From positions 448,001 to 512,000 of the forward strand of contig JBEKSS010000001.1 of NCBI GenBank assembly GCA_049516875.1: 64,000 bases of DNA, written 5' to 3'. Source of the DNA: Candidatus Bathyarchaeia archaeon. GTDB taxonomy: Archaea > Thermoproteota > Bathyarchaeia > Bathyarchaeales > Bathycorpusculaceae. This document shows positions 34,057 through 57,330 of the stretch, piece by piece. The first letter of the stretch is position 1. The number at the start of each line of letters is the position of its first letter. The translations under genes and the position numbers were made by a program. A model generated the notes under the pieces. That model was not told where the DNA came from. It ran no database searches and worked only from the letters and a program-made list of their open reading frames with translations.

Positions 34057-35562
34057 ATGCAAGACGAGCTTAAGATAGCGTGTGGAGTGTTCGCTGCAAA
34101 GAATCTTGAGAACCGGCCGGTGTTCTCGTACATTTACTGGGGTCTGAGAGCACAGAACCACAGGGGTCACCAGTCGCACGGTTTTCTCACGTATAAGGAT
34201 GGGAAATTTCATGTTCACAGGAATCTGGATCTTGTGCCGAAGATCAAGACGAGCGCGATTCAGGAATGGTTTGGGCGTTTGCCCGGCAGCATCGGTATCG
34301 GAAACGTTAGGTACACGACTTCGGGAAAATGCGATGAGAAGTCGTTGATTAAGGGCACGCAGCCAGTTACTGCTACGAAGAACGGTTCAAAAGTGGCTAT
34401 TTCGTTTAACGGTAATGTTGTGAACACGTTTCAGCTAAGGAAGGAGATAGACAAGAAGTTTCATCGTTTTGCGTATGAGTGTGATTCAGACTTGATTTGT
34501 CACAAGCTTTTGATTGAGCTTGTGAAACGCAAGGATTTGGCGTCTGCGGTCAAGGCGTGCATGCAGGAGGTTGAGGGAGCCTTCTCCGTGGCGGGTATAA
34601 CGGAGAAAGGTGATTTCTTCGCTTTCAAGGATCCGCACGGCATTAGGCCGTTGTGCGCTGGTCACAGTCCGGACGGGTCAACCTACGTGTTTTCTTCGGA
34701 AACCGTGAGTTTGGACATTAACGGTTTTGAAAGGGACTTTGAACTGGAGCCCGGAGAGCTTGTGACCGTTTCGAAGAATGGTTTTGAAAGGCAAAAGCTT
34801 GTGAAAGATTATCGGAAAGCCTTTTGCGCTTTTGAGTTTGCGTATTTTGCGAGGCCGGATTCGCGGTTTGACGATAAATATGTTTATGAGGTTCGGGAAG
34901 AGTTTGGCAGGAACCTTGTCAAAGAGAATCCTGACGCAGTGAAGGATGCAGATATGATTCTTTCTGTGCCCGAGACGGGTGATGACTCGGCTTTGGGCGT
35001 TCACGAGGCTTCTGGAATAAGGTGGGAGAGAGCTTCGCGGAGACACCGGTATGTGACTGAGAGGGCTTTTCTGTTGCTGAGCAAGGATCGCACTTCGACG
35101 ATAGACAGGAAAATCAACATTCTAGGGCCGAAGGTTAAGGGAAAAAGGATCATAGTCACGGAGGACAGCATCGTCAGGAGCGACACGACAAGAGTCATTG
35201 TGGAGAAAATGCGGAGAATGGGCGCTAAGAAAGTGTACGTATTCGTGACTTTTCCACGCATAGTCGGACCGTGTCTCTATGGAATCGACATGGCAACATA
35301 CGGCCAGCTGATAGGTTCACGGCACAGTACGGAGGAAATTGCAAAGATAATCGGTGCGGACGCGGTTTGCTACCAGTCTTTAGAAGGACTTGTGAAGGCG
35401 ACGGGTTTCAAGCAGGACGAGCTGTGCATGGCGTGCTTGACGGGCAAGTATCCCACGCCGCTAGCTCAGAAGATAGCTGACGTGATGAAGAAACGGTTCT
35501 CGGAAGGCTACGAAGAAACGGGAAGGCTTTACGAGATAGAAGAAGCCGCCCAAACGGCGTAG
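34057..35562 (+). CDS. purF: Amidophosphoribosyltransferase
   Basis: Short propeptide then CGVF, HRG, RYTT, FEFAYFARPDS, EDSIVR, YGIDM, CMACLTGKYP. Confidence 0.95.
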   Translation: MQDELKIACGVFAAKNLENRPVFSYIYWGLRAQNHRGHQSHGFLTYKDGKFHVHRNLDLVPKIKTSAIQEWFGRLPGSIGIGNVRYTTSGKCDEKSLIKGTQPVTATKNGSKVAISFNGNVVNTFQLRKEIDKKFHRFAYECDSDLICHKLLIELVKRKDLASAVKACMQEVEGAFSVAGITEKGDFFAFKDPHGIRPLCAGHSPDGSTYVFSSETVSLDINGFERDFELEPGELVTVSKNGFERQKLVKDYRKAFCAFEFAYFARPDSRFDDKYVYEVREEFGRNLVKENPDAVKDADMILSVPETGDDSALGVHEASGIRWERASRRHRYVTERAFLLLSKDRTSTIDRKINILGPKVKGKRIIVTEDSIVRSDTTRVIVEKMRRMGAKKVYVFVTFPRIVGPCLYGIDMATYGQLIGSRHSTEEIAKIIGADAVCYQSLEGLVKATGFKQDELCMACLTGKYPTPLAQKIADVMKKRFSEGYEETGRLYEIEEAAQTA

Positions 35563-35595
35563 CGGCAAACCAAATTAGGCGTTCCCAGTTATTCT

Positions 35596-37032
35596 GTGAT
35601 CCAAGAGGGCTTGCTTGTGGAGAAGGTGGGCGTACTCGTTGTTTCCTACGGTTCAAGAGAAGCGGCGATGGTTGACGCTTTTGCCAGAAGCAGGAATTAC
35701 AGGGTTGAGCTTTACGTTGCGGACAAGCAGCGGAACCCTTTCAACGTTCAGAGAGCTGCCAAGCACGTTGTCATACCGGACTTGAACATCCGTGAAATCT
35801 GCAAGTTCGCTGAGGCCAACAAGGACAGCATCGACTTTGGCATAATCGGTCCGGAGAAGCCTATCATTGAGGGCGTGCGCGATCTTGTGGAGAAGCAGAC
35901 GGGCATACCCTTGATTTGTCCGACGAAGGAGTACGCGATAGAGGAAAGCAAGGTGCGGCAGAGGCTTTTGTTTCAGGAAATCATGCCGGAAGTGAACCCG
36001 CGCTTTAAGGTTTTTGATCCGAAGGATTACAAAAATACGGCGGAAGTGAAGCAGGCCGTTGAAAGTTGGGTTGACGAGCTGCAAGACCAGGCGGTCGTGA
36101 AGCCTGACAAGCCTACTGCGGGAAAAGGAGTGGGCGTCTGGGGAGATCACTTCACCACGCGGGAAGAATTGTTTGAACACTTCCTCTCCAACTATCAGCA
36201 CGGCACCGTTATTATTGAAGAAAAGGTTGAGGGGGAAGAATCGAGTTTTCAGGCTTTCTGCGACGGCAAACGGCTCGTGCCACTTCCCGACACGAGAGAC
36301 CACAAACGCGCGTTCGACGACGATAGAGGACCGAATACGGGTGGAATGGGCAGCTACAAGGATAAGGGCGACGTGTTGCCGTTCCTGTCCAAGGCGGATC
36401 GGCAGAGAGAATTGGAGGTTGTGGAGAAGATTTTTGGAAGGTGGAAGTCGAGGGCAAAGGACGGTTCAGGCTTGAGGGGTGTGCCGTTGTACGTGGCTTT
36501 CATGCACACGGGCGAGGGGTTGAAGATTCTTGAAAACAACAGCCGTCCGGGAGACCCCGAAATAATGAATGTTCTGCCAGTCTTGAAGGAGGATTTTGTT
36601 GATGTGTGTTTTAGGATTTTGGAGGGGAATTTGACAGGCATCGAGTTGGAGAAGTCGGCGACTGTTGCAACGTATAAGGTTCCGCCCAGCTACGGTGGAT
36701 ACGCCGAGACTTTCCCCGATCTGGTGAGAAAAGGCGAAGTTGGCATGTCTGTTGACTTGTCAGGAGCATACGGGCTGAGCAAGAAGTACGGTGACAATAT
36801 TCGTGTTTATCCGGGGTCGATGGAGCAGCGCGACGGCGAAACTTATGCTCTTAAGTCGCGAGCCGTGTGTGTTGTGGGTGTCGGTGACGATTTGGAGACG
36901 GCGAGAAAGGTTTCTCTCGAAGGCCTAAACGCCGTCAAGGGCGGAGCACTGTGGAGCAGAAGTGACATTGCTTCCAAGAGGCATATTGAAAGAAGCGTGA
37001 AACATATGGAGGAGTTGAGGCGCAAACGGTGA
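35596..37032 (+). CDS. purD: Phosphoribosylamine-glycine ligase
   Basis: GSRE, IGPE, GKGV, DHKRAFDDDRGPNTGGMG, RPGDPE. Confidence 0.93.
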   Translation: MIQEGLLVEKVGVLVVSYGSREAAMVDAFARSRNYRVELYVADKQRNPFNVQRAAKHVVIPDLNIREICKFAEANKDSIDFGIIGPEKPIIEGVRDLVEKQTGIPLICPTKEYAIEESKVRQRLLFQEIMPEVNPRFKVFDPKDYKNTAEVKQAVESWVDELQDQAVVKPDKPTAGKGVGVWGDHFTTREELFEHFLSNYQHGTVIIEEKVEGEESSFQAFCDGKRLVPLPDTRDHKRAFDDDRGPNTGGMGSYKDKGDVLPFLSKADRQRELEVVEKIFGRWKSRAKDGSGLRGVPLYVAFMHTGEGLKILENNSRPGDPEIMNVLPVLKEDFVDVCFRILEGNLTGIELEKSATVATYKVPPSYGGYAETFPDLVRKGEVGMSVDLSGAYGLSKKYGDNIRVYPGSMEQRDGETYALKSRAVCVVGVGDDLETARKVSLEGLNAVKGGALWSRSDIASKRHIERSVKHMEELRRKR

Positions 37033-38111
37033 GGAGAGTCTTTGTCTCGGACTGTGAGGGGCCGATTTCAAAGAATGACAATGCTTTCGAGTTGACGTCA
37101 CGGTTCGTTCCTGACGGGGACAAGCTGTTCACGGTTGTGAGCAGGTATGACGATGTGCTCGCAGAGGTTGTGAATAAACAGGGCTACGAAGCTGGCGGCA
37201 CGGTCAAGCTGGTTCTGCCCTTTCTCAAGGCTCACGGCGTTACGGATCGGAAGATGCGGGAATTCTCGGCCGAACACTTGGTTTGCGTTCCGGGCATAAA
37301 GGACACGCTCCAACACGTTAGGGCTTTGGCTCCTGCGTTTATCGTCAGTGCGAGTTACGAGCATTATTTGAGAGCCTTGTGCGAAGTTCTGGAGTTTCCT
37401 TTTGAGAACACGTACTGTACGAGAGTCTGCATGGACAAGTACGGGATTCGAGAGAAAGAGAAGGAGGAGTTGAAGCAGACTGCGAAGGAGATCGCGCATA
37501 TGCCGGTGTTTGAGATCCCGTCAGACGCGGAGTCACTGGATGATCTGCCGGGAGAGGACGAGAAAACGGTGAGACGGCTTGATGAGATTTTCTGGAAGAG
37601 AATTGCGGAGATGGAGATTGGCAGAATCTATTGTGATGTCAACCCGGTGGGTGGGGGCGAAAAGGCTGAGGCGATAAAGGACATAGTTGAAAGGCTGGGC
37701 GTTGCGGTGGCAGATGTCATGTATGTGGGTGACAGCATAACAGATGACGAGGCTTTCAAGTTTGTAGATAGAAAGGGCGGCTTAACCGTGTCTTTTAACG
37801 GCAACCAATACGCTGTGAAAAACGCTGAAATTGCAGTTTTGTCCGATAACAGCATCGTGACAGCTGTCATTGCAGACGTGTTTCTTAGGCTTGGAAAATC
37901 AGAAACCCTAGACCTGGTGAAAAACTGGAACAGTAAAGCGCTGGAAAAGAGCTCGGTTAGTCAAAATGTGCTTAATCGGCTCTTCAAAGCGTATCCGGGC
38001 AAGCTGCCTAAAGCTAAAATAATTACGGACCAGAATATGGAGACTCTGGCAGAAGAAAGCAGCAAGTTTAGAAACAAAGTCAGAGGAGAGGCCGCAGGCA
38101 GGTTGGGTTGA
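37029..38111 (+). CDS. HAD-superfamily hydrolase (EhaR-like)
   Basis: SDCEGPISKNDNA, IVSASY, GGGEKA, YVGDSITD, SFNGN; GTGA overlap with purD. Confidence 0.8.
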   Translation: MRRVFVSDCEGPISKNDNAFELTSRFVPDGDKLFTVVSRYDDVLAEVVNKQGYEAGGTVKLVLPFLKAHGVTDRKMREFSAEHLVCVPGIKDTLQHVRALAPAFIVSASYEHYLRALCEVLEFPFENTYCTRVCMDKYGIREKEKEELKQTAKEIAHMPVFEIPSDAESLDDLPGEDEKTVRRLDEIFWKRIAEMEIGRIYCDVNPVGGGEKAEAIKDIVERLGVAVADVMYVGDSITDDEAFKFVDRKGGLTVSFNGNQYAVKNAEIAVLSDNSIVTAVIADVFLRLGKSETLDLVKNWNSKALEKSSVSQNVLNRLFKAYPGKLPKAKIITDQNMETLAEESSKFRNKVRGEAAGRLG

Positions 38112-39026
38112 ATGGTTCGGAAGGATTTGGTTGAGGACACTTATGCTGAAGCGTTTGACGGCTTGTACGTGCGAGTCATTGTCACTGCGGATGATGAGGA
38201 AACGTTGAAGAAGGCGGCGGAAGACGCTACTGCTTCGCCGTCGGGAGTAATAGGTAGGCTTGAGGGTGGAATTGAAAAATGGCTGAACGCTGAGGAAACT
38301 CCGGACAGGCGGAAAGGAGCTGTTCTGCAGCTTTGGAAGGGGTTGGACAAGGGGAAATCTTTGGAGAGTGTGGTTGAGCGGTTTGAGAGGGAGCTTTCTT
38401 ATCGGGTTCGGCAGGACATTCTTGTGAAGCCTTTCACCGCGGTTTTTGATGCTTTGTCTGTTAAGGCTGAGGGAAGAATGGACATGATGGAAAAGGTTGG
38501 GCACTGTGGCGATGGGTATGAGTGGGAGAAGCAGCTCTATGGTCGAAGTATGATTGTTGTTCCGATTATGGTGCCTGATTTTTTTATTGAGCGGCATGTC
38601 GGTTATGCTCGGGGGGTTTCTGGTGGCAATTTTTGGATGATGTGCAGGACGAAGAAGGCGGTGAGGGAGGCTGGCAAGGCGGCGTTGGAAGCCATAGGCA
38701 AGGTTGAAGGAGTGATAACGCCTTTTGACGTTTGTTCGGCTGGGTCGAAGACTGAGACCAAATTTCCGTTGATAGGGCCGACGACGAATCATCCTTATTG
38801 TCCGTCGCTGAAGGAGAAGTTGGGCAGAGAGTCGTTGGTTCCTGAAGGAGTCAACTACATTCCTGAAATAGTGATCAGCGGCGTTTCGATGCGTGCGGTG
38901 AAAGAGGCGATGAAGGCTGGGATTGAAGCAAGTTTGACTGTTGACGGCGTTGTGAAGGTCTCTGCAGGAAACTACGGAGGAAAATTGGGTGAGTACAAGA
39001 TTTACTTGCGTGAGCTGTTCCGATGA
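38112..39026 (+). CDS. ftr: Formylmethanofuran:H4MPT formyltransferase family protein (Ftr paralog, EhaS-like)
   Basis: [45 protein letters not shown]. Confidence 0.85.
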
Positions 39027-39940
39027 GCAGATTTGACGTTGTGGGGTTCGGCGCGCTTAACGTGGACAAGCTTTTCAAGGTGAACAGGATAGCCGCGAAG
39101 GAAGAGGAGAGCTTCATAACAGATTTTATTGAGACCTGCGGTGGGTCAGCGGCAAACACTGTTGTAGGCTTGGCAAGACTTGGCTGCAAAGTGGGTTTTA
39201 TTGGAAAAGTTGCCAGTGACAGAGAAGGAAAGATGCTGCTTGAAGAGTTCCGCAGAGAAGGCGTCGACATAAAAGGCGTAGCGGTTGCAAAGAAGGGCAG
39301 AAGCGGCACAGTCATGGGATTCGTGGACGAAAAAGGTGAACGGGCACTGTACATTGATCCGGGCGTAAACGATCAAGTAGGGTTTAATGAGAATATCATG
39401 AGATATGCGTCTCAAACGACGTTTCTTCACTTGACTTCTTTTGTGGGGGAAGAGTCCTTTCAGGCGCAAAAGAGGATTCTTGAGACGATTCCTGAAGATG
39501 CCATGGTGAGCTTTGATCCTGGTGCGTTGCACGCGAGGAAAGGGTTGGCTGCATTGGAATCGATTGTTGGGAGGACTTTTGTTTTGATGCCGAACGCGGG
39601 TGAACTTGAACTATTGACAGGCATGGCCGATTATAGAAAGGGCGCTGAAGCCTTGCTTAGGAAGGGTGTGAAGGTTGTTGCAGTCAAGTTGGGCAGCAGA
39701 GGGTGCTATGTGACTGATGGGAGACAGAGCCACAACGTGGAAGCGTTCAAGGTGAACGTGGTGGATACGACTGGTGCTGGGGACGCTTTTTGTGCGGGGT
39801 TCCTCTACGGCTTGATTGAACATGAGAGTCTTGAGGAGTGTGGAAGGATAGGGAATTTCGTGGCATCTAGATGCACAACAAGAATGGGAGCAAGAGTAGG
39901 ACTGCCAACACTCAAGGATTTGACAAAGCTACACAGATAG
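39023..39940 (+). CDS. PfkB/ribokinase-family kinase (EhaT-like / nucleoside kinase)
   Basis: [25 protein letters not shown]; ATGA overlap with ftr. Confidence 0.9.
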
Positions 39941-40348
39941 AATTTCTTTAACCTTGCCCAAGAACGTCTCAGCGTTCTTTACTATGCTCGTAGCTCCTTC
40001 CTCTGAGAATATGAGGCCATAATCAGCCTCTTCTCTTAGGCTCATGGCTTCTTCAAAGTCGTGAATCAGTCCTGATTCAACCCGATTTTCAAATAATTCT
40101 CTTAACGCTATCAGCAACGCGTAATGACTCTTCTCTCTGTATCCCTTGCTGTAAACGAGTGCTCTTGCCGCATGAAACATGGAATAATAACCCTGTATTG
40201 TAGCCCATTTGAACCTCTTCCTCCACAAAGAGTCCTTTGCCTCCTCCAAATCAGAGACGGCTCCTTCGACTTCCTTGATGACTAATTTTCTGTCCGACCT
40301 TATCCTGATCAATCTTCTCTCTTCGATGAAACGCTCGAATTCGCTCAT
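39929..40348 (-). CDS. HEPN-domain toxin
   Basis: WATIQGYYSMFH, KSH, REEADY. Confidence 0.88.
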   Translation of the reverse strand: MSEFERFIEERRLIRIRSDRKLVIKEVEGAVSDLEEAKDSLWRKRFKWATIQGYYSMFHAARALVYSKGYREKSHYALLIALRELFENRVESGLIHDFEEAMSLREEADYGLIFSEEGATSIVKNAETFLGKVKEILSV

Positions 40349-40887
40349 TCAGACTCCCACAAAGTAACTCCTTTCAAAATTCTCTCGTACAAGGGCTTGT
40401 CCTCCTTCTTCAACTTCACGAACTCGTTTGAGTTAACAACAATCGGTGATATCCTTTTCAGAACACTTTTTTGATAATCACTGATACTCGACCTCACTTT
40501 ATCCTTTTCATTCGTGAGAATGAACAAATCCACATCGCTTTCTTTCGCATCAGTCCCCTCTGAACAGCTTCCAAACAAAATTATCTTCTTACTGCTGTTT
40601 CTTATCTGCTCAACCAATGCATTAAGGGAATATACGTTGAAAAGAACCTTGAACTGCCTTGCCACAGCGTTTTTCGAGTTAAACCTGTAAAAAACCATCC
40701 TACCCCTTCTGCTTCTTTGCAGGACTTTGACTTCAGAAAGCAGTCTAAGAACTCTGTTTGCAGAACCTTCACTCACCCGCGCTCTTCTCGCCACTTCTCT
40801 CTCGTGAATTTCCTGCACAGGATCTTCATGAAACAGATAGAGAACCTTCAGCAGAGTCGGCGTAATGAAATCCAATTTTTTGAGCAT
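40345..40887 (-). CDS. HTH-minimal nucleotidyltransferase (MNT) antitoxin
   Basis: wHTH + LFGS..GT...SDVDLFI; ATGA overlap with HEPN. Confidence 0.88.
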   Translation of the reverse strand: MLKKLDFITPTLLKVLYLFHEDPVQEIHEREVARRARVSEGSANRVLRLLSEVKVLQRSRRGRMVFYRFNSKNAVARQFKVLFNVYSLNALVEQIRNSSKKIILFGSCSEGTDAKESDVDLFILTNEKDKVRSSISDYQKSVLKRISPIVVNSNEFVKLKKEDKPLYERILKGVTLWESE

Positions 40888-52744: not shown

Positions 52745-53560
52745 CTAGGCTGTTTCCAGATGGCCAATCAAGCTTTCAAAGATCAGTTTCCCATCGCCGT
52801 GTTCCGACAACTTCTCCCGTCTTGTCCAGTCGGCTTGTTGCCACCAGTAGAATGCTCTTTCAGGATGCGGCATTAGCCCGAACACTGTTCCTTCCGTGTT
52901 GCATATGCCTGCAATGTCATGGAAAGAACCATTCGGGTTTGAAGGAAATTTGCCTTCAGCGTACTCGCCGTCTCTGCTGCAATATCGGAAAACCAGTTGA
53001 TTATTCTCCCGAAGCTTCTCCAGATATTGCTTCTCCTTCTCTTTCGGAAACAGAAACCTGCCTTCGCTGTGTGCAACCGGCACGTGCAAAACCTTTCCTT
53101 TCGGAATTTTCTGGGTGAACACGCATTTGCCGTTGTTTTCATGTTTTAGGCTTATCCAGCGGCAGTTGTATCCGGGGGGAAAATTCGTTGCCAAACCCGC
53201 CTCAGGAATCGGACTCATGCCTTCAAAGCCCGGAAGCAAACCCGTCTCAACAAGCACCTGAAAACCGTTACAAATCCCCAGGATCAGACGACCCTCATCC
53301 ACAAAAGCCTTCAACTCCTTGCCCAGCTTCGCCAGAATCCACTTTGCCCAAATAGCCCCAGCCCGAACGTAATCCCCATAAGAAAAACCTCCAGGAAAAA
53401 CCAGCACATCATACTCCAAAAGACTCCTCTTCTTCACAATTTCATTCACATGCACAACCTCAGCACGCACACCCAACGCTTCAAACGAACGCCTCGTCTC
53501 AGCATCACAGTTAGTCCCGCCCACACGCAAAACACAAACCCTAATCTCCCCACGCTTCAC
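52745..53560 (-). CDS. purQ: FGAM synthase glutaminase subunit
   Basis: GTNCD, PGGFSYGD, GICNGFQ, NPNGS, GLMPHPER. Confidence 0.97.
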   Translation of the reverse strand: MKRGEIRVCVLRVGGTNCDAETRRSFEALGVRAEVVHVNEIVKKRSLLEYDVLVFPGGFSYGDYVRAGAIWAKWILAKLGKELKAFVDEGRLILGICNGFQVLVETGLLPGFEGMSPIPEAGLATNFPPGYNCRWISLKHENNGKCVFTQKIPKGKVLHVPVAHSEGRFLFPKEKEKQYLEKLRENNQLVFRYCSRDGEYAEGKFPSNPNGSFHDIAGICNTEGTVFGLMPHPERAFYWWQQADWTRREKLSEHGDGKLIFESLIGHLETA

Positions 53561-53563
53561 AGC

Positions 53564-55945
53564 TCACACCCCACCGCTCAACGTCCTTTTCCAACTCCTC
53601 AACAAATCACCCAGCGAAGCATCCACAACCACCCCGCCAGTCAGCCCCCTAACGCACAGCCGAGGAGACTTCGTAACCTTGCCAACCTCACTGCAAACCC
53701 TGCCCTTCATCAAACCCTCAAACTCGTCCCGAGCTTTCGCTGAAACCTCCACCAGAAACCGACTGTTCGACTCCGAGAACAAGACAAAATCATCACGCCC
53801 AAAACCTTTCGCAGGAGCCTTGCGCAAATCCAACTCCAACCCATAACCACCGGCAAAAGCCATCTCCGCCGCCGCCACAGCCAGACCGCCCTCAGACAAG
53901 TCATGGCACGCCTTAACCAGTCCACAGTCAATCGCCCTAGTAACCGCCCTAAACCCCTTCCTAGCCCGACTACCACGCACTTTAGGAACAGACTTGCCCA
54001 GAAACCCTTTCAGCCTGTAATATTCCGACCCGCCTAGCTCCTGAAAAGTTTCGCCAACAACGTAGATAGAATCGCCCGGAGCCTTAACGTCCATCGAAAC
54101 TGTTGAACGAATATCAGGCACAAGCCCTAAAGCGGTGATTAGAAGCGTCGGCGTCACAGGCCCAAGCGGCGACTCGTTGTACAGGCTGTCTTTCCCGGAT
54201 ATGAACGGCGTTCCAAAAGCAACCGCAAAATCATAGCATGCTTCACAAGCCCGTACTAGGCTGCCCAGCCTTTCGGGCCTTTCAGGGTTTCCCCACGTGA
54301 AATTGTCCAGCAGCGCAATTCTTCTTCCTCCAACAGCAACGTTGTTCCTAACGGCCTCATCAATCGCCGAGGCAGCCATCCAGTAAGCGTCAATCTTTCC
54401 GAATTTCGGGTTCATTCCGCACGAAACCGCTATGCCTTTCCAAGAACCGTCCAACGGCTTCAGCACGGCCGCATCGTTCGGCCCCCCAAACTCGCCCTGC
54501 AACGGCTTAAGCACCGTGTTACCCTTAACCTCATGATCATAACTCCTCACAACGCTCTCCTTGCTCGCAACGTTAGGCGAAGCCAAAACCCCCAACAACA
54601 CATCATTCAAATCCTCAGGCTCAGAAAACATCGGCTCAGCATCATTCACCGGTCGGTATTCCGCCTTCCTCGTCAACTTAGGCGGCTCGAAAAGGAACGA
54701 AATGCCCATCTCCACAACCCTCTCCCCCTTATAATCGAGCCGAAGCATTCTGTCGGAAGTCAGTCTGCCGATGACCGTCGTTTCAACATTCTCCCCGCTG
54801 AAGACTCCCTGAACCCGCATAACGTTGTCAGGCGGCACCGTTAACAGCATTCTTTCCTGAGACTCTGAAACGTAGATTTCCCACGGAGCCAACCCCTCAT
54901 ACTTCAACGGCACCTTGTCAAGCTCAACCACTGCTCCGCAGTCATACTTGTTCGCTGTTTCACCGACAGCCGAGGACAGGCCTCCACCGCCCAAGTCCGT
55001 TATCCCCGATGCCAACCCCAAATCTCTGACCTGAACGATTGCCCTCTTCAACTTCTCCTCCTCAACAGGGTTCGCAATCTGCACCGCAGGCCGAGAAATC
55101 ATCTCAGACTTCTCCGTCAGCTCCGCAGACGCAAAAGTCACCCCGTGAACGCCTTCGCGACCCGTTTTTCCCCCGGCAAGCACAATCACGTCACCAGCCT
55201 TCGCGTCCTTCCTGAACCTGTCAAACCGTAGCAGCCCCACACAGCCGCAGTAGACAACAACGTTGCCGGTGTAGCTCTCGTCAAAGTATATCGCTCCGTT
55301 CACTGTTGGGATTCCCATGTTGTTGCCGTAGCTTCCAATCCCCGCCACGACCCCCATGTACAAGTACCTCGGATGTTTAACGCCGTTGGGCAGTTTTTCA
55401 TACTCAAAATCTAAGGGGCCAAAGCCCAGCACGTCGGTGCAGGCTATCGGGTCTGCCCACACGCCCAGAATGTCTCGGATGACGCCTCCCGTCCCCGTTG
55501 CCGCGCCGCCGAAAGGCTCCACCGCCGATGGATGGTTGTGAGTTTCAACCTTAACAGCTATACCGTATCCTTTGTCGAAGTTCACGATGCCCGCGTTGTC
55601 CTCAAACACAGAGAAGCACCAGTGTGGACTGATCTTCTTTGTCGCACCTGCGATGTACGTTTTGAAAAGGCCTTTGATACGTTTTCCGTCGAACCTGATA
55701 TTGTCCTTGAAAGTCTTGTGGAAGCAGTGCTCAGACCATGTCTGTGCGATAGTTTGAAGCTCCACATCGGTTGAGTTCCGTCCCCTCAAACTGAAATGGT
55801 CTTTGACAGCTTTCATCTCTCGCAGGCTCAGGGCCAGGCCAAGTTCACGGCTCATCTCCAGAAGCTGCTCGTCAGAGGCCCCCAGAACCCTCGCCTCAAA
55901 CAGGGAAAAAGGGGTTTTTCTCTGGACAAACAGGTTTGCCGTCAT
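53564..55945 (-). CDS. purL: FGAM synthase synthetase subunit
   Basis: WSEHCFHK, KVETHNHPSAVEP, SESQERM, HDLSEGG. Confidence 0.97.
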   Translation of the reverse strand: MTANLFVQRKTPFSLFEARVLGASDEQLLEMSRELGLALSLREMKAVKDHFSLRGRNSTDVELQTIAQTWSEHCFHKTFKDNIRFDGKRIKGLFKTYIAGATKKISPHWCFSVFEDNAGIVNFDKGYGIAVKVETHNHPSAVEPFGGAATGTGGVIRDILGVWADPIACTDVLGFGPLDFEYEKLPNGVKHPRYLYMGVVAGIGSYGNNMGIPTVNGAIYFDESYTGNVVVYCGCVGLLRFDRFRKDAKAGDVIVLAGGKTGREGVHGVTFASAELTEKSEMISRPAVQIANPVEEEKLKRAIVQVRDLGLASGITDLGGGGLSSAVGETANKYDCGAVVELDKVPLKYEGLAPWEIYVSESQERMLLTVPPDNVMRVQGVFSGENVETTVIGRLTSDRMLRLDYKGERVVEMGISFLFEPPKLTRKAEYRPVNDAEPMFSEPEDLNDVLLGVLASPNVASKESVVRSYDHEVKGNTVLKPLQGEFGGPNDAAVLKPLDGSWKGIAVSCGMNPKFGKIDAYWMAASAIDEAVRNNVAVGGRRIALLDNFTWGNPERPERLGSLVRACEACYDFAVAFGTPFISGKDSLYNESPLGPVTPTLLITALGLVPDIRSTVSMDVKAPGDSIYVVGETFQELGGSEYYRLKGFLGKSVPKVRGSRARKGFRAVTRAIDCGLVKACHDLSEGGLAVAAAEMAFAGGYGLELDLRKAPAKGFGRDDFVLFSESNSRFLVEVSAKARDEFEGLMKGRVCSEVGKVTKSPRLCVRGLTGGVVVDASLGDLLRSWKRTLSGGV

Positions 55946-56193
55946 CTTGTCTCCTCGACACTTATCGCAGAATCGTCCTTAGTCGGGTTCGCCAAAAGCC
56001 TCTTACACATTTCCACAGCTTCCGCTTGTGCCTCTTTCTTGGAGGAAGCTTCGAGAACAACCTTGTAGACTTTGCCGACGCCAACAGCTTTGACCTTGTA
56101 ACCCAGCTGTTTCAACAAGTCCCCGGTGGTCTCGCCCTCAGGGTCGCTGTGGCCCGGCTTCAGGCTGACTTCGATTTTGAGACGGTACTTCAT
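55942..56193 (-). CDS. purS: FGAM synthase PurS subunit
   Basis: LKPG..DPEG, GK, LLANP. Confidence 0.95.
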   Translation of the reverse strand: MKYRLKIEVSLKPGHSDPEGETTGDLLKQLGYKVKAVGVGKVYKVVLEASSKKEAQAEAVEMCKRLLANPTKDDSAISVEETR

Positions 56194-56247
56194 AGGCTAA
56201 ACTGGGCTAAAGCAGATTTAAACACTTTCATCACTATCTAGGCAAAT

Positions 56248-57330
56248 TCACTTCAGAATAATTCTCTTATTCTTGTATAGAATCTTGACTCCTTCTGCAC
56301 GCGTTACGTGACCTATTTCTTCAGCCTGGGTGCCTGTTTTTTCCAGAACGTCTATCGTCCTCTCGCCGTCCTTCTTGTCAACAATCAAAGCAAAGCCCCA
56401 TCCCATGTTAAACGTCTTAAACATCTCCTCATCAGTTATCGTCCCACCCATGTCGGCTGCGGTATTCTGAATCAGACTGAATATCGGTTGGGGTTTGAAA
56501 TTGTTGAACTCGAAACCTATGTCTCCTGAAAACTCTTTGAGCTTGTTGAACTTCATGTAAGCGTCGCCCGTCACGTGCACTGCAGCCTTGACCTCAATCT
56601 CCTCAGTGACCTTGAGGAAGGGCTTAACGTATATCGTGGTCGGTTCCAAAACCTCATCAACCACTTCCCTGTCCAAGCCCTCAGGAACCGCGTCAGCCTC
56701 GTACTTACCTCCCCACTGCTTGAACAGCACTCTCCTTACTAGGGATACGCCGTTGCTGTGGACGCCCGAACTGCGCAAGCCCACAATGACGTCTCCAGGT
56801 CTCACTTTTCTGCCCGAAATGACCTTACCCTTAGGCACTACTCCTATAGAGGCAAACACCATGTCGAAGCCCTTGCCTTCCGTCAAACCTTTGATGAGTT
56901 CAGCAACGTCGCCGATTTCGCCACTTGGCACCACACACTCGGCTTCTGCCGCGCCCTTCACTATTCCCTTCATGAACTCAAAAATCAACACGGGATCCGA
57001 CACCTGAGCGTGAATGTTGTCCGCCAAGGCAAGCGGCCGAGCCCCAGAACGAATCACGTCGTTAACGGCCACTGCTACACCGTCGACCCCAATAGTGTCG
57101 AACCTGTTTGCCAGCTGAGCGACCAGTACTTTCGTGCCCACCCCCTCAACCACCAAGTCCAGGTAGCAATCGCCAAAGGGAAAAATCCGCCCATAAGGAA
57201 GAACCACGACCTTGCCGTATTGGCTGAAACCATACGTTTTGTTCAGAATACTCAACGTTTTCTTGGACTCAGCTCTCAGATTCCTGTCAACTCCAGCGCC
57301 AGCGTAAGTAAGCTTGCGACCCAACACCAA
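56248..57330 (-). CDS. purM: AIR synthetase
   Basis: TYAGAGVD, EGVGTK, SSGVHSNG, HVTG, TFNMG. Confidence 0.95.
   Translation of the reverse strand: MVLGRKLTYAGAGVDRNLRAESKKTLSILNKTYGFSQYGKVVVLPYGRIFPFGDCYLDLVVEGVGTKVLVAQLANRFDTIGVDGVAVAVNDVIRSGARPLALADNIHAQVSDPVLIFEFMKGIVKGAAEAECVVPSGEIGDVAELIKGLTEGKGFDMVFASIGVVPKGKVISGRKVRPGDVIVGLRSSGVHSNGVSLVRRVLFKQWGGKYEADAVPEGLDREVVDEVLEPTTIYVKPFLKVTEEIEVKAAVHVTGDAYMKFNKLKEFSGDIGFEFNNFKPQPIFSLIQNTAADMGGTITDEEMFKTFNMGWGFALIVDKKDGERTIDVLEKTGTQAEEIGHVTRAEGVKILYKNKRIILK

Follow-up and report, generated by a model that had tools for sequence, protein, structure and literature searches.

How does an archaeon with neither PurN nor PurT convert GAR to FGAR, as purine synthesis demands at its third step? 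The question is raised by a 64,000-nucleotide stretch of a Candidatus Bathyarchaeia genome from peat (the window), in which a single plus-strand operon (34057-39940) joins purF and purD to three further genes, whose products are a HAD protein of 360 aa, an Ftr paralog, and a PfkB kinase (Table 1). The operon is tightly coupled: 33 nt separate purF from purD, and inspection of the junction letters found the purD stop and HAD start overlapping in GTGA (37029-37032), HAD meeting the Ftr paralog at TGA-ATG (38109-38114), and the latter overlapping PfkB in ATGA (39023-39026), which bears out the open reading frames and junctions given in a sequence-only reading of the window. That reading also proposed that HAD, Ftr, and PfkB together replace PurN/PurT at step 3. 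Phylogeny, phyletic complementarity, the operon slot, and residue conservation support the proposal, and from these sequence comparisons we consider it likely that the module, whose Ftr paralog belongs to the Ftr2 subfamily, carries out GAR formylation with a formyl group drawn from the H4MPT C1 pool.

Table 1. Purine-synthesis genes of the window and their operon partners (positions are those of the window).
Feature	Position	Strand	Remark
purF	34057-35562	+	amidophosphoribosyltransferase, step 1; first gene of the operon
purD	35596-37032	+	GAR synthetase, step 2; divergent type
HAD-superfamily protein, 360 aa	37029-38111	+	
Ftr paralog, Ftr2 subfamily, 304 aa	38112-39026	+	candidate GAR (or GAR-riboside) formyltransferase
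PfkB-family kinase, ribokinase or riboside-kinase type, 305 aa	39023-39940	+	
purQ	52745-53560	-	NCBIfam score above cut-off
purL	53564-55945	-	NCBIfam score above cut-off
purS	55942-56193	-	Pfam PF02700 match
purM	56248-57330	-	NCBIfam score above cut-off

The first two genes are recognizable, if divergent. PurF matches TIGR01134 across its full length (324 bits, below the cut-off of 350) and contains GATase_6/7 domains, while PurD, encoded by a single-copy gene, scores 258 bits against TIGR00877 (cut-off 288) and contains the GARS_N/A/C domains. Steps 4 and 5 are covered by purQ, purL, purS, and purM on the minus strand (52745-57330), so that the window holds steps 1, 2, 4, and 5, as had been claimed. 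The claimed absence of purN and purT extends from the window to the whole genome (2.43 Mb, 97.46% complete, 5.38% contamination), where neither PF00551 nor TIGR01142 had a single match at E<=0.001 and PurT- and PurK-like proteins were likewise missing; the step-3 hole in the pathway is thus real. The second formylation is covered by PurP, encoded outside the operon; a search of the genome for PurH found none. The genes for FwdA and Mch are on a different contig (C2:159061-162538), in agreement with the earlier remark that no fwd or mch gene accompanies this ftr, and because both are encoded, formyl-MFR and formyl-H4MPT pools are expected.

In the literature, purN and purT are described as missing from Archaeoglobi, Methanobacteria, and M. 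kandleri (PMC3261824). An 'Ftr2' clade was reported with members from ANME-1, ANME-2a/b, Archaeoglobales, M. kandleri, and M. marburgensis, and a separate remark in the same paper states that PurN and PurT are absent from ANME-1 (PMC9012536).

The window Ftr has both PF01913 and PF02741 domains and scores 354 bits against NF002554 (cut-off 297) and 250 bits against TIGR03119, below the cut-off of 293. It shares its two Pfam domains and similar length with canonical Ftr (1FTR, 2FHJ, 1M5H, 1M5S) and FhcD of methylotrophs (6S6Y), with 40-45% identity to the solved structures. The catalytic glutamate is aligned: Glu252 of the window protein corresponds to Glu245 of M. kandleri Ftr, and the glutamate of the same motif is described as the oxyanion-stabilizing Glu252 of FhcD (PMC6926001). 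Phylogenetically, however, the window copy stands apart, on the opposite side of a branch with an SH-aLRT of 100 from all solved or named canonical Ftrs. The canonical clade (57 rows) includes both further Ftr copies of the genome, so the expectation of a non-canonical grouping with a second, canonical ftr elsewhere was borne out. The window copy differs from canonical Ftr in 15 signature columns (e.g., R100 for G, C132 for F, and P223 for A), common to group II and rare in Ftr1; its PFPGG loop is shorter by two residues, and 9 residues are inserted after position 75. It is also located in a purine rather than a C1 operon, and occurs in genomes where PurN/PurT are missing.

The gene order recurs, beyond chance, in Bathyarchaeia (43 other loci) and in Asgard (one locus). 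At the 44 cassette loci counted, Ftr2 is followed directly by PfkB in 44/44 and preceded by HAD in 41/44. Linkage to pur genes, which the sequence-only reading had predicted, is conserved as well: PurD was found at 38/40 loci with sufficient room, purF directly 5' of purD at 32/40 with sufficient upstream DNA, and at least one of purQ, purL, and purM at 33/44, with purQ/L/S/M running convergently straight toward the cassette in most relatives. The Asgard locus, from Borrarchaeum, is included in the 44 and is colinear (purF-purD-HAD-Ftr2-PfkB-purL-purQ-purM, 29-44% identity). Outside the cassette clade, neither purD nor purF adjoined Ftr2 at any of the 26 loci from groups II and III, where the neighbors vary (FBPase, PFK, TPR proteins, M42 peptidase), and this counts against the step-3 reading.

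Within one class, the slot after purD has four fillings, of which HAD-Ftr2-PfkB is the one found in the window. The second is PurN, as in purF-purD-PurN-FolD of G082 (218 bits, cut-off 150), and the third PurT, found in family f17 and in the purF-purD-PurT arrangement of G016 (NF006766, 472 bits, cut-off 339). The fourth, in G027, reads purF-purD-[PurN-like, 330 aa]-HAD-PfkB-FolD; the PurN-like protein has a foreign N-terminal half and still has the GAR transformylase catalytic motifs N-x-H-P and D-E-G-P, and the three other sampled members of the family to which G027 belongs carry Ftr2. This variant retains HAD-PfkB, whereas canonical PurN loci are without the pair. PurD follows the same division: the window protein is 51-58% identical to PurD from loci with HAD-PfkB and only 26-32% to PurD adjoining canonical PurN or PurT. 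At locus L071, purF (32% identity) is also directly upstream of purD. PurN and PurT thus resemble Ftr2 in slot and in complementary distribution, yet PurN has an unrelated fold and uses another C1 carrier (folate), and PurT is an ATP-grasp ligase using free formate and ATP, while the only ATP-grasp protein of the window module is PurD.

We analyzed the distribution of Ftr2 in 151 Bathyarchaeia genomes, each at least 85% complete, calling Ftr2 at 358 bits or more against profile A3 (next best match at most 285 bits). Ftr2 was found in 59 genomes, PF00551, which matches formyltransferases beyond PurN as well, in 64, and a PurT-like protein in 11, one of which (G001) is PurK. Among the 132 purD-bearing genomes, 56 have Ftr2, 61 only PF00551, 10 only PurT-like, and 5 none; two of these five (G056, G147) have purF-purD-HAD cassettes broken off at a contig end. 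Ftr2 and PF00551 occur together only in G115, where a separate contig, 11 kb long, carries the PF00551 gene. Families f11, f20, and f22 are mixed, and the switch therefore occurred several times. Along the same lines, 99 of 241 Halobacteriota genomes have an Ftr2-type protein scoring 389 bits or more (293 for the next best match), and 94 of the 99 are without both PurN and PurT (PF00551 in 5/99, PurT in 0/99), and 135 of the 142 genomes without Ftr2 have PurN or PurT (125 with PF00551, 10 more with PurT at 436 bits or above). These counts include kin and are not independent, and those for Halobacteriota and Asgard were made without taxonomy and span all sampled genomes, purD-bearing or not. 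In a Methanococci-type phylum, each of the 36 genomes encodes just one Ftr, scoring no higher than 287 bits (Ftr2 in 0/36), with PurT above cut-off in 4/5 genomes tested. The predicted anti-correlation thus held in Bathyarchaeia and Halobacteriota and failed for a lower-scoring Promethearchaeota type of Ftr2 (367-383 bits), as 8/10 such Asgard genomes also carry PF00551. This type probably has a different job or is redundant. It and the five Halobacteriota exceptions make the complementarity less than universal, which speaks against the step-3 reading.

The HAD protein has weak HAD-IB and HAD-IIB matches and a D-x-E-G-P motif I. A profile search matched AF1437 of Archaeoglobus fulgidus at 165 bits, a homolog with the same D-x-E-G-P start, deposited as a 'hypothetical protein' (PDB 1Y8A); its structure is solved with no function recorded, and a full-text literature search found no functional study of AF1437 or 1Y8A. 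In 22 sequences from three phyla, D8, E10, G11, P12, S107, and K212 are invariant, as are G234, D235, S236, I237, and D239 of the GDSIxD motif. HAD homologs track Ftr2 genome-wide even when unlinked (93/99 Ftr2-type Halobacteriota vs 10/142 without Ftr2) and adjoin PfkB at 7/14 short HAD loci; against the step-3 reading, six Halobacteriota genomes have HAD with no Ftr2-type, PF00551, or PurT match. The kinase matches PF00294 (190 bits) and the ribokinase model TIGR02152 (173 bits, cut-off 300), and 21 orthologs invariably share N13, D15, G40, G41, N45, E194, and the whole motif DTTGAGD, which includes D254. By their sequences, then, both are conserved partners with intact catalytic motifs.

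Three alternatives deserve consideration. The full Ftr domains, the catalytic glutamate, and the NF002554 score would also suit an ordinary formylmethanofuran:H4MPT formyltransferase isoenzyme that steers C1 units to purines, for example by making formyl-methanofuran to be hydrolyzed to formate for PurP, while an as yet unrecognized enzyme performs step 3. PurP does need formate, the Ftr copy on contig C6 adjoins an amidohydrolase with weak FwdA-like matches, so that formate-releasing chemistry may exist in this genome, and Ftr2 and PF00551 coexist in some genomes. We nevertheless regard this as unlikely: two canonical-type Ftr copies are already present, Ftr2 is missing from lineages that use PurP and bear PurT, the Methanococci-type phylum among them, the genes with which Ftr2 alternates after purD are those of step-3 enzymes and not formate-supplying genes, and the PF00551 and TIGR01142 searches gave no other step-3 candidate.

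Alternatively, HAD and PfkB could be a ribose or nucleoside salvage or PRPP-supply pair travelling with purine genes, and Ftr2 could serve some unrelated purpose, for instance in making a cofactor or in formylating another substrate such as AICA-riboside. This, too, appears improbable, although PfkB is most closely related to ribokinases and to kinases of ribose-1-phosphate or nucleosides, and in Archaeoglobus HAD and PfkB are apart from Ftr2, on different contigs. General salvage would not predict that HAD tracks Ftr2, nor does it sit easily with PfkB directly after Ftr2 at every cassette locus and with overlapping stop and start codons in the window. The occurrence of HAD-PfkB with a PurN-like protein in place of Ftr2 can be read either for a separate pair or against it, another formyltransferase having taken the vacated position. 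Methanococci use MFR and H4MPT and have no Ftr2, which counts against cofactor synthesis, and AICAR formylation is covered here by PurP. Lastly, it is very improbable that the anti-correlation is a lineage or cofactor by-product, with Ftr2 a mere marker of folate-free archaea without PurN and an unrecognized formate-dependent ligase doing step 3: kin are non-independent, two of the three samples have no taxonomy, and Brown et al. considered an unknown formate-using enzyme (PMC3261824), but the complementarity is three-way, PurT-bearing H4MPT users (10 Halobacteriota, Bathyarchaeia f11, f12, and f17, and the Methanococci-type phylum) are also without Ftr2, states switch inside single families (f11, f22), and the replacement falls at the same operon position.

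Under the step-3 reading, the operon would encode the start of purine synthesis, with PurF and PurD followed by the HAD-Ftr2-PfkB module in place of PurN/PurT. Ftr2 would draw a formyl group from the C1 pool of archaea, most likely from N5-formyl-H4MPT, with formyl-methanofuran as the alternative, and place it on the GAR skeleton at the glycyl amine, which would stand in for the methanofuran amine; the product would pass to PurLQS and PurM. A direct GAR formyltransferase needs neither a phosphatase-like protein nor a kinase, a point against this reading. The simplest account of the two, which we offer tentatively as a possible but doubtful route, is a riboside detour: HAD would strip the 5'-phosphate from GAR, the riboside would be formylated, and PfkB would rephosphorylate it to FGAR. 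The report that purine C8 of M. stadtmanae derives from acetate C2, even with formate present (PMC3261824), fits a pterin-bound donor. Against the step-3 reading, formyl transfer from formyl-H4MPT to the methanofuran-type amine is given as slightly uphill (+4.4 kJ/mol; PMC6926001), and in the account of Brown et al. N10-formyl-H4MPT is not believed to act as a formyl donor (PMC3261824).

EhaS and EhaT of Methanothermobacter, as described, show the same Ftr-like and ribokinase-like pairing at the end of the eha operon (PMC3087415), in a lineage reported without purN and purT (PMC3261824). They differ in being co-transcribed with a hydrogenase operon rather than pur genes, and the likeness is one of gene description; on account of this co-transcription, Kaster et al. 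took them as hydrogenase subunits (PMC3087415), a view that also runs against the step-3 reading. If that reading is true, our analysis suggests that the long-missing step-3 enzyme of purine synthesis in many archaea would be a methanogenesis-enzyme relative that works alongside a sugar kinase and a phosphatase-like protein.

The operon is preceded by aspS, and the junctions from which the sequence-only reading had taken purD, HAD, ftr and pfkB to be translationally coupled are present in the sequence as described (GTGA at 37029, TGA-ATG at 38109-38114, and ATGA at 39023). Downstream, a HEPN/nucleotidyltransferase pair that resembles MntA-type toxin-antitoxin systems lies on the opposite strand and converges on the operon. 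The proteins and loci closest to those of the window are named Bathyarchaeia or Bathyarchaeota. In a read-archive search, 24 runs of metagenomic DNA from peat, wetland, and sediment contained the operon wholly or partly, and two of these may be its source; no RNA run carrying it was listed in that search.

Operon genes, other purine genes and further open reading frames (ORFs) of the window
Feature	Position	Strand	Model match or remark
purF-purD-HAD-Ftr2-PfkB operon	34057-39940	+	five ORFs by ORF calling
purF	first of five operon ORFs	+	TIGR01134 324 bits, under the 350 cut-off
purD	second operon ORF	+	TIGR00877 258 bits, under the 288 cut-off
HAD-superfamily protein, 360 aa	third operon ORF	+	weak family matches
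Ftr2, 304 aa	fourth operon ORF	+	both Ftr lobes; NF002554 354 bits (>297); TIGR03119 250 bits (<293)
PfkB kinase, 305 aa	fifth operon ORF	+	best model ribokinase, 173 bits, under 300
HEPN protein and nucleotidyltransferase with N-terminal HTH	39929-40887	-	
HEPN ORF	39929-40348	-	overlaps the final 12 nt of pfkB
purQ, purL, purS, purM	52745-57330	-	
Long ORF, 871 aa	45632-48247	-	no NCBIfam match at E<=1e-10
Long ORF, 786 aa	58518-60878	+	no NCBIfam match at E<=1e-10
Long ORF, 703 aa	11468-13579	+	no NCBIfam match at E<=1e-10

The genome to which the window belongs (20 contigs, 2.43 Mb, 97.46% complete, 5.38% contamination) encodes a single PurD, as well as PurP, which covers the second formylation of the pathway; PurH was not found in it. 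The absence of purN and purT, first noted for the window, extends to the whole assembly, which has neither a PF00551 (Formyl_trans_N) match nor a match to the PurT model, a model that picks up PurK too. FwdA and Mch are encoded together on one contig (C2), and F420-dependent Mtd was not found in this genome. The organism thus combines a C1 route based on methanofuran and H4MPT with early purine steps that can be recognised except for step 3, the conversion of GAR to FGAR, for which it has no known enzyme. There are three Ftr genes. A canonical-type copy with a 30-residue N-terminal extension (contig C1, 104355-106263; locus L004, 8355-10264) lies immediately downstream of a gene for a creatininase-family protein (PF02633, 201 bits); formamide hydrolases belong to this family. 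A glutamine synthetase gene separates the third copy (contig C6, 75815-79467; locus L005, 6837-10486) from a nearby gene for a 429-aa amidohydrolase, which TIGR03121, the FwdA/FhcA model, matches weakly; such a pair could release free formate from formyl-H4MPT in Fhc-like fashion and so supply PurP.

We placed the window protein in a quick maximum-likelihood tree of 140 Ftr-family proteins: the three of its own genome, 77 taken from named loci, and 60 representing clusters at 50% identity. All named canonical copies fall into one clade of 57 rows (SH-aLRT 100), with members from Methanococci, Methanosarcinales, Methanogenium, and Archaeoglobus and one Methanophagales copy. Both other Ftr copies of the genome belong to this clade and the window protein lies outside it, as anticipated by the sequence-only reading, which had called for a second canonical ftr elsewhere in the genome and a separate branch for the paralog. 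The window protein sits in a Bathyarchaeia clade of 42 rows (99), nested in a group of 54 rows (90) that includes a Borrarchaeum protein. Adjoining it is a group of Methanophagales, Alkanophaga, Archaeoglobaceae, Pyrohabitans, and one Methanocellales MAG (group II), while a third group, mainly from Promethearchaeota, is more distant (group III). Fifteen signature columns are at least 80-85% conserved both in the cassette clade and in group II and are rare in canonical Ftr; for instance, R100, C132, and P223 replace canonical G, F, and A, respectively. The window clade and group II match the ‘Ftr2’ clade described by Chadwick et al. in ANME-1, ANME-2a/b, Archaeoglobales, M. kandleri, and M. marburgensis (PMC9012536). 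The Ftr2 clade of proteins P0125/P0126, a candidate for EhaS of Methanobacteria, has only ‘archaeon’ MAGs among its named members.

Both lobes of the Ftr fold are full length in Ftr2 (PF01913, 152 bits; PF02741, 194 bits). Glu252, invariant across the cassette-clade alignment, occupies the position of Glu245 in M. kandleri Ftr and of the glutamate in the LEIVI motif of FhcD, which is described as stabilising the oxyanion there (PMC6926001). The protein neither groups with characterised Ftr enzymes nor reaches the cut-off of their equivalog model, TIGR03119. By fold and motifs, Ftr2 of the window is a member of the Ftr superfamily outside the clade of characterised enzymes.

The association of Ftr2 with purine genes was examined in the 80 best loci, taking one genome per species. 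Cassette-clade Ftr2 occurs in 44 of these, 43 from Bathyarchaeia and one from Candidatus Borrarchaeum. PfkB follows directly 3' in all 44, and HAD precedes Ftr2 in 41 (all but L010, L022, and L074, a degraded locus). The proposed pur linkage is conserved: among the 40 cassette loci with enough upstream DNA, PurD is present in 38 and PurF in 32, and at least one of purQ, purL, and purM occurs in 33/44. The Asgard locus, L071 of Borrarchaeum, is colinear at only 29-44% identity (purF-purD-HAD-Ftr2-PfkB-purL-purQ-purM). Conversely, neither purD nor purF adjoins Ftr2 in any of the 26 group II and III loci, where the neighbours vary and include FBPase, PFK, TPR proteins, and an M42 peptidase.

Several loci merit separate description. 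In the Halobacteriota sample, one locus (L110; G393, contig C7, 252730-256758) reads purD-HAD-Ftr2-PfkB, 47-68% identical to the window's, and its cassette scores are Bathyarchaeia-like (511 and 467 bits), which points to transfer of the whole cassette or a misbinned contig. In three Bathyarchaeia loci (L046, L061, and L074), frame breaks split the cassette genes into pieces; all three come from one isolate series, so that assembly error is as likely as decay. Group III Ftr2 of four Promethearchaeota loci (L065-L067 and L070) lies beside a conserved, divergently transcribed gene of 303-307 aa, which has a weak IPPT match and belongs to no clear family, and near a conserved gene of ~600 aa. Upstream of group II Ftr2 in three Methanophagales-like loci (L049, L060, and L068), HAD, TPR proteins, and archaeal FBPase stand in a row, which in L060 additionally holds PFK and an aldolase-like gene, suggesting a loose tie of the module to sugar-phosphate genes.

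The position after purF-purD, occupied in the window by HAD-Ftr2-PfkB, is filled differently in other Bathyarchaeia. It holds PurN (218 bits, cut-off 150) followed by FolD in G082, and PurT (NF006766, 472 bits, cut-off 339) in G016. In G027, a PurN-like protein of 330 aa stands there, with HAD, PfkB, and FolD after it; the same PurN-like protein, HAD, and PfkB are found in G032, in a comparison that left FolD aside. G027 belongs to a family (f22) whose other three sampled members have Ftr2. The PurN-like protein retains N-x-H-P and D-E-G-P, the catalytic motifs of GAR transformylases, and matches these enzymes over residues 140-250 only, its first 140 residues being unrelated. Canonical PurN and PurT loci lack both HAD and PfkB. 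PurD differs accordingly, with 51-58% identity to the window's in HAD-PfkB loci versus 26-32% in canonical PurN/PurT loci; one genome (G025) departs from this, its PurD being of canonical type although HAD-Ftr2-PfkB lies next to it. By TIGR00877, Bathyarchaeia PurD falls into two types, scoring 220-280 bits (L086, L087, and L097) and 300-505 bits (L096, L124, and L126), the lower of which accompanies HAD-PfkB with either Ftr2 or the PurN-like protein. The PurT of family f17 (G016, L124:3466-4869; also G064 and G091) has 467 aa; its model match is broken into two parts, 1-230 and 229-377, and the gap between them indicates an insert of ~40-45 residues.

The same alternation was followed across genomes. 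Four profile searches were run on one set of 151 Bathyarchaeia genomes at least 85% complete, in which the cassette-clade profile gave two score classes (>=358 and <=285 bits). Ftr2 type was found in 59 genomes, PF00551 in 64, PurT-like matches (E<=1e-40) in 11, and purD in 132. A PurT-like match in G001 proved to be PurK adjoining PurE and was removed from the PurT count; PurT scores above the cut-off in G016 and below it in G005, and the remaining eight PurT-like genomes are counted on E<=1e-40 alone. The 132 purD-bearing genomes comprise 56 with Ftr2, 61 with PF00551 only, 10 with PurT-like only, and five with none, two of which (G056 and G147) have purF-purD-HAD cassettes that end at a contig end. 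The predicted anti-correlation is borne out, as PF00551 is absent from 55 and PurT from all 56 of the purD-bearing Ftr2 genomes. The only Bathyarchaeia genome with both Ftr2 and PF00551 (G115) carries the latter on a separate 11-kb contig with FolD and 5-formyl-THF cyclo-ligase. Three families (f11, f20, and f22) are of mixed state, and the switch is therefore not one old split.

The anti-correlation also holds beyond Bathyarchaeia, in counts taken over all sampled genomes irrespective of purD. Among 241 Halobacteriota, 99 have Ftr2 type (>=389 bits, the next best match being 293); PF00551 accompanies it in five and PurT in none, so that 94/99 lack both. The 142 without Ftr2 divide into 125 with PF00551, 10 more with PurT (>=436 bits), and seven that lack all three. 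The five genomes with both Ftr2 and PF00551 would fit the remark that ANME-2a/b carry both Ftr2 and PurN (PMC9012536). In the Methanococci-type phylum, all 36 genomes have one Ftr of <=287 bits, and PurT is above the cut-off in four of the five tested. Ftr2 type occurs in 22 of 126 Asgard genomes: the 12 scoring >=394 bits have neither PF00551 nor PurT, and eight of the 10 scoring 367-383 bits (Promethearchaeota type) have PF00551 too. Genomes with group III Ftr2 mostly retain PurN. All genome counts include kin, and since related genomes are non-independent observations, Fisher tests are not given as probabilities. In summary, Ftr2 alternates with PurN and PurT, both across genomes and at one operon position, and functionally behaves like a non-orthologous replacement of the two.

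The HAD partner is homologous to A. fulgidus AF1437 (1Y8A; 165 bits), a solved but uncharacterised protein. Across 22 sequences (Bathyarchaeia, Asgard, and Halobacteriota), the invariant residues include the nucleophile D8, S107 of motif II, K212 of motif III, and those of a GDSIxD motif (G234, D235, S236, I237, D239). The Asp+2 position is Glu in 22/22, giving D-x-E-G-P, and all NCBIfam HAD models score below the cut-off. Glu at this position also occurs in enolase-phosphatase E1. The HAD profile matches 103/241 Halobacteriota, comprising 93/99 genomes with Ftr2 versus 10/142 without; of these ten, PF00551 accompanies HAD in four, and the other six lack all three step-3 candidates. In Archaeoglobus (G153), HAD and Ftr2 are on different contigs, and a PfkB 49% identical to the window's adjoins HAD; a PfkB neighbour was likewise seen in 7/14 short HAD loci. 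In 21 PfkB orthologs (PF00294, 190 bits), the sugar-binding N/D and GG..N, the NxxE, and the catalytic DTTGAGD are all invariant. The nearest solved relatives are ribokinases and one adenosine kinase (~100 bits), and the score for ribokinase proper (TIGR02152) is 173 bits against a cut-off of 300. An invariant Ser (S42) follows the Gly-Gly motif, at a position that E. coli ribokinase presumably fills with Lys (K43); the solved ribokinase aligned with it is 11bl. Because their motifs are conserved, HAD tracks Ftr2, and HAD-PfkB adjacency recurs, the two look, from their sequences, like working enzymes for a ribofuranose-type substrate that belong functionally with the formyltransferase. A structure-level test of a HAD-PfkB complex, run without controls, scored 0.00 and counts neither for nor against binding.

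An Ftr-family transferase with an intact catalytic residue thus sits in a purine operon that lacks a known step-3 enzyme. As the likeliest reading, we propose that Ftr2 formylates the glycyl amine of GAR, which, by analogy, would stand in for the amine of methanofuran; the donor would be N5-formyl-H4MPT or, alternatively, formyl-methanofuran. With +4.4 kJ/mol in the direction of the furan amine, the Ftr-type reaction runs close to equilibrium (PMC6926001), and later ATP-dependent steps would have to draw the flux forward. A pterin-bound formyl donor would fit labelling in M. stadtmanae, where purine C8 comes from acetate C2 even with formate, which is not so in M. smithii (PMC3261824). Several observations count against Ftr2 as the step-3 enzyme: group III coexists with PurN, as Ftr2 does with PF00551 in five Halobacteriota genomes; no pur linkage is seen for group II genes; six genomes have HAD and none of the three candidates; and a direct GAR formyltransferase would have no need of HAD and PfkB. 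Moreover, Kaster et al. regarded EhaS and EhaT, encoded at the end of the eha operon of Methanothermobacter, as hydrogenase subunits (PMC3087415). Two other roles for Ftr2 were rejected: AICAR formylation, as PurP is present, and cofactor synthesis, as Methanococci lack Ftr2.

A variant that gives HAD and PfkB a part is a detour at the nucleoside level. The D-x-E HAD would take the 5'-phosphate off GAR; the Ftr-family enzyme, or in some lineages a remodelled PurN-like enzyme, would formylate glycinamide riboside straight from the methanogenic and Wood-Ljungdahl pool of formyl-H4MPT; and the dedicated PfkB kinase would rephosphorylate the product to FGAR. This order of dephosphorylation, formylation, and rephosphorylation, put forward in the sequence-only reading, is chemically coherent and agrees with the gene order, and we hold it tentatively, as the less probable course of the reaction. 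It also fits the retention of HAD-PfkB where Ftr2 is replaced by a PurN-like enzyme without the usual N-terminal half. That many archaea lacking PurN and PurT make their purines by such a detour is possible, if rather doubtful.

The step-3 gap in Archaeoglobi, Methanobacteria, Methanopyrus, and ANME-1 was on record by 2011 at the latest, in the survey of archaeal purine genes by Brown et al. (PMC3261824), and was restated in 2022 by Chadwick et al., who treat the gap and the Ftr2 clade in separate sections and, in those sections, leave them unconnected (PMC9012536). A full-text search of the literature library found no paper assigning Ftr2, EhaS, or AF1437 to purine synthesis. The comparative evidence points to one concrete, testable three-gene candidate for this step. 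If the riboside detour were true, step 3 would have a third class of enzyme, unrelated to the other two, and de novo purine synthesis would gain its first free riboside intermediate. Formylation by the HAD-Ftr2-PfkB module, if true, would link nucleotide synthesis directly with the H4MPT C1 pathway; it would assign roles to the widespread ‘second Ftr’, the orphan structure 1Y8A, and a dedicated PfkB kinase, and may explain the conflicting C8 labelling data. These genes are now counted among those of methane or C1 catabolism when the metabolism of Bathyarchaeia, ANME-1, Archaeoglobi, and some Asgard archaea is reconstructed, and such reconstructions would then be corrected.
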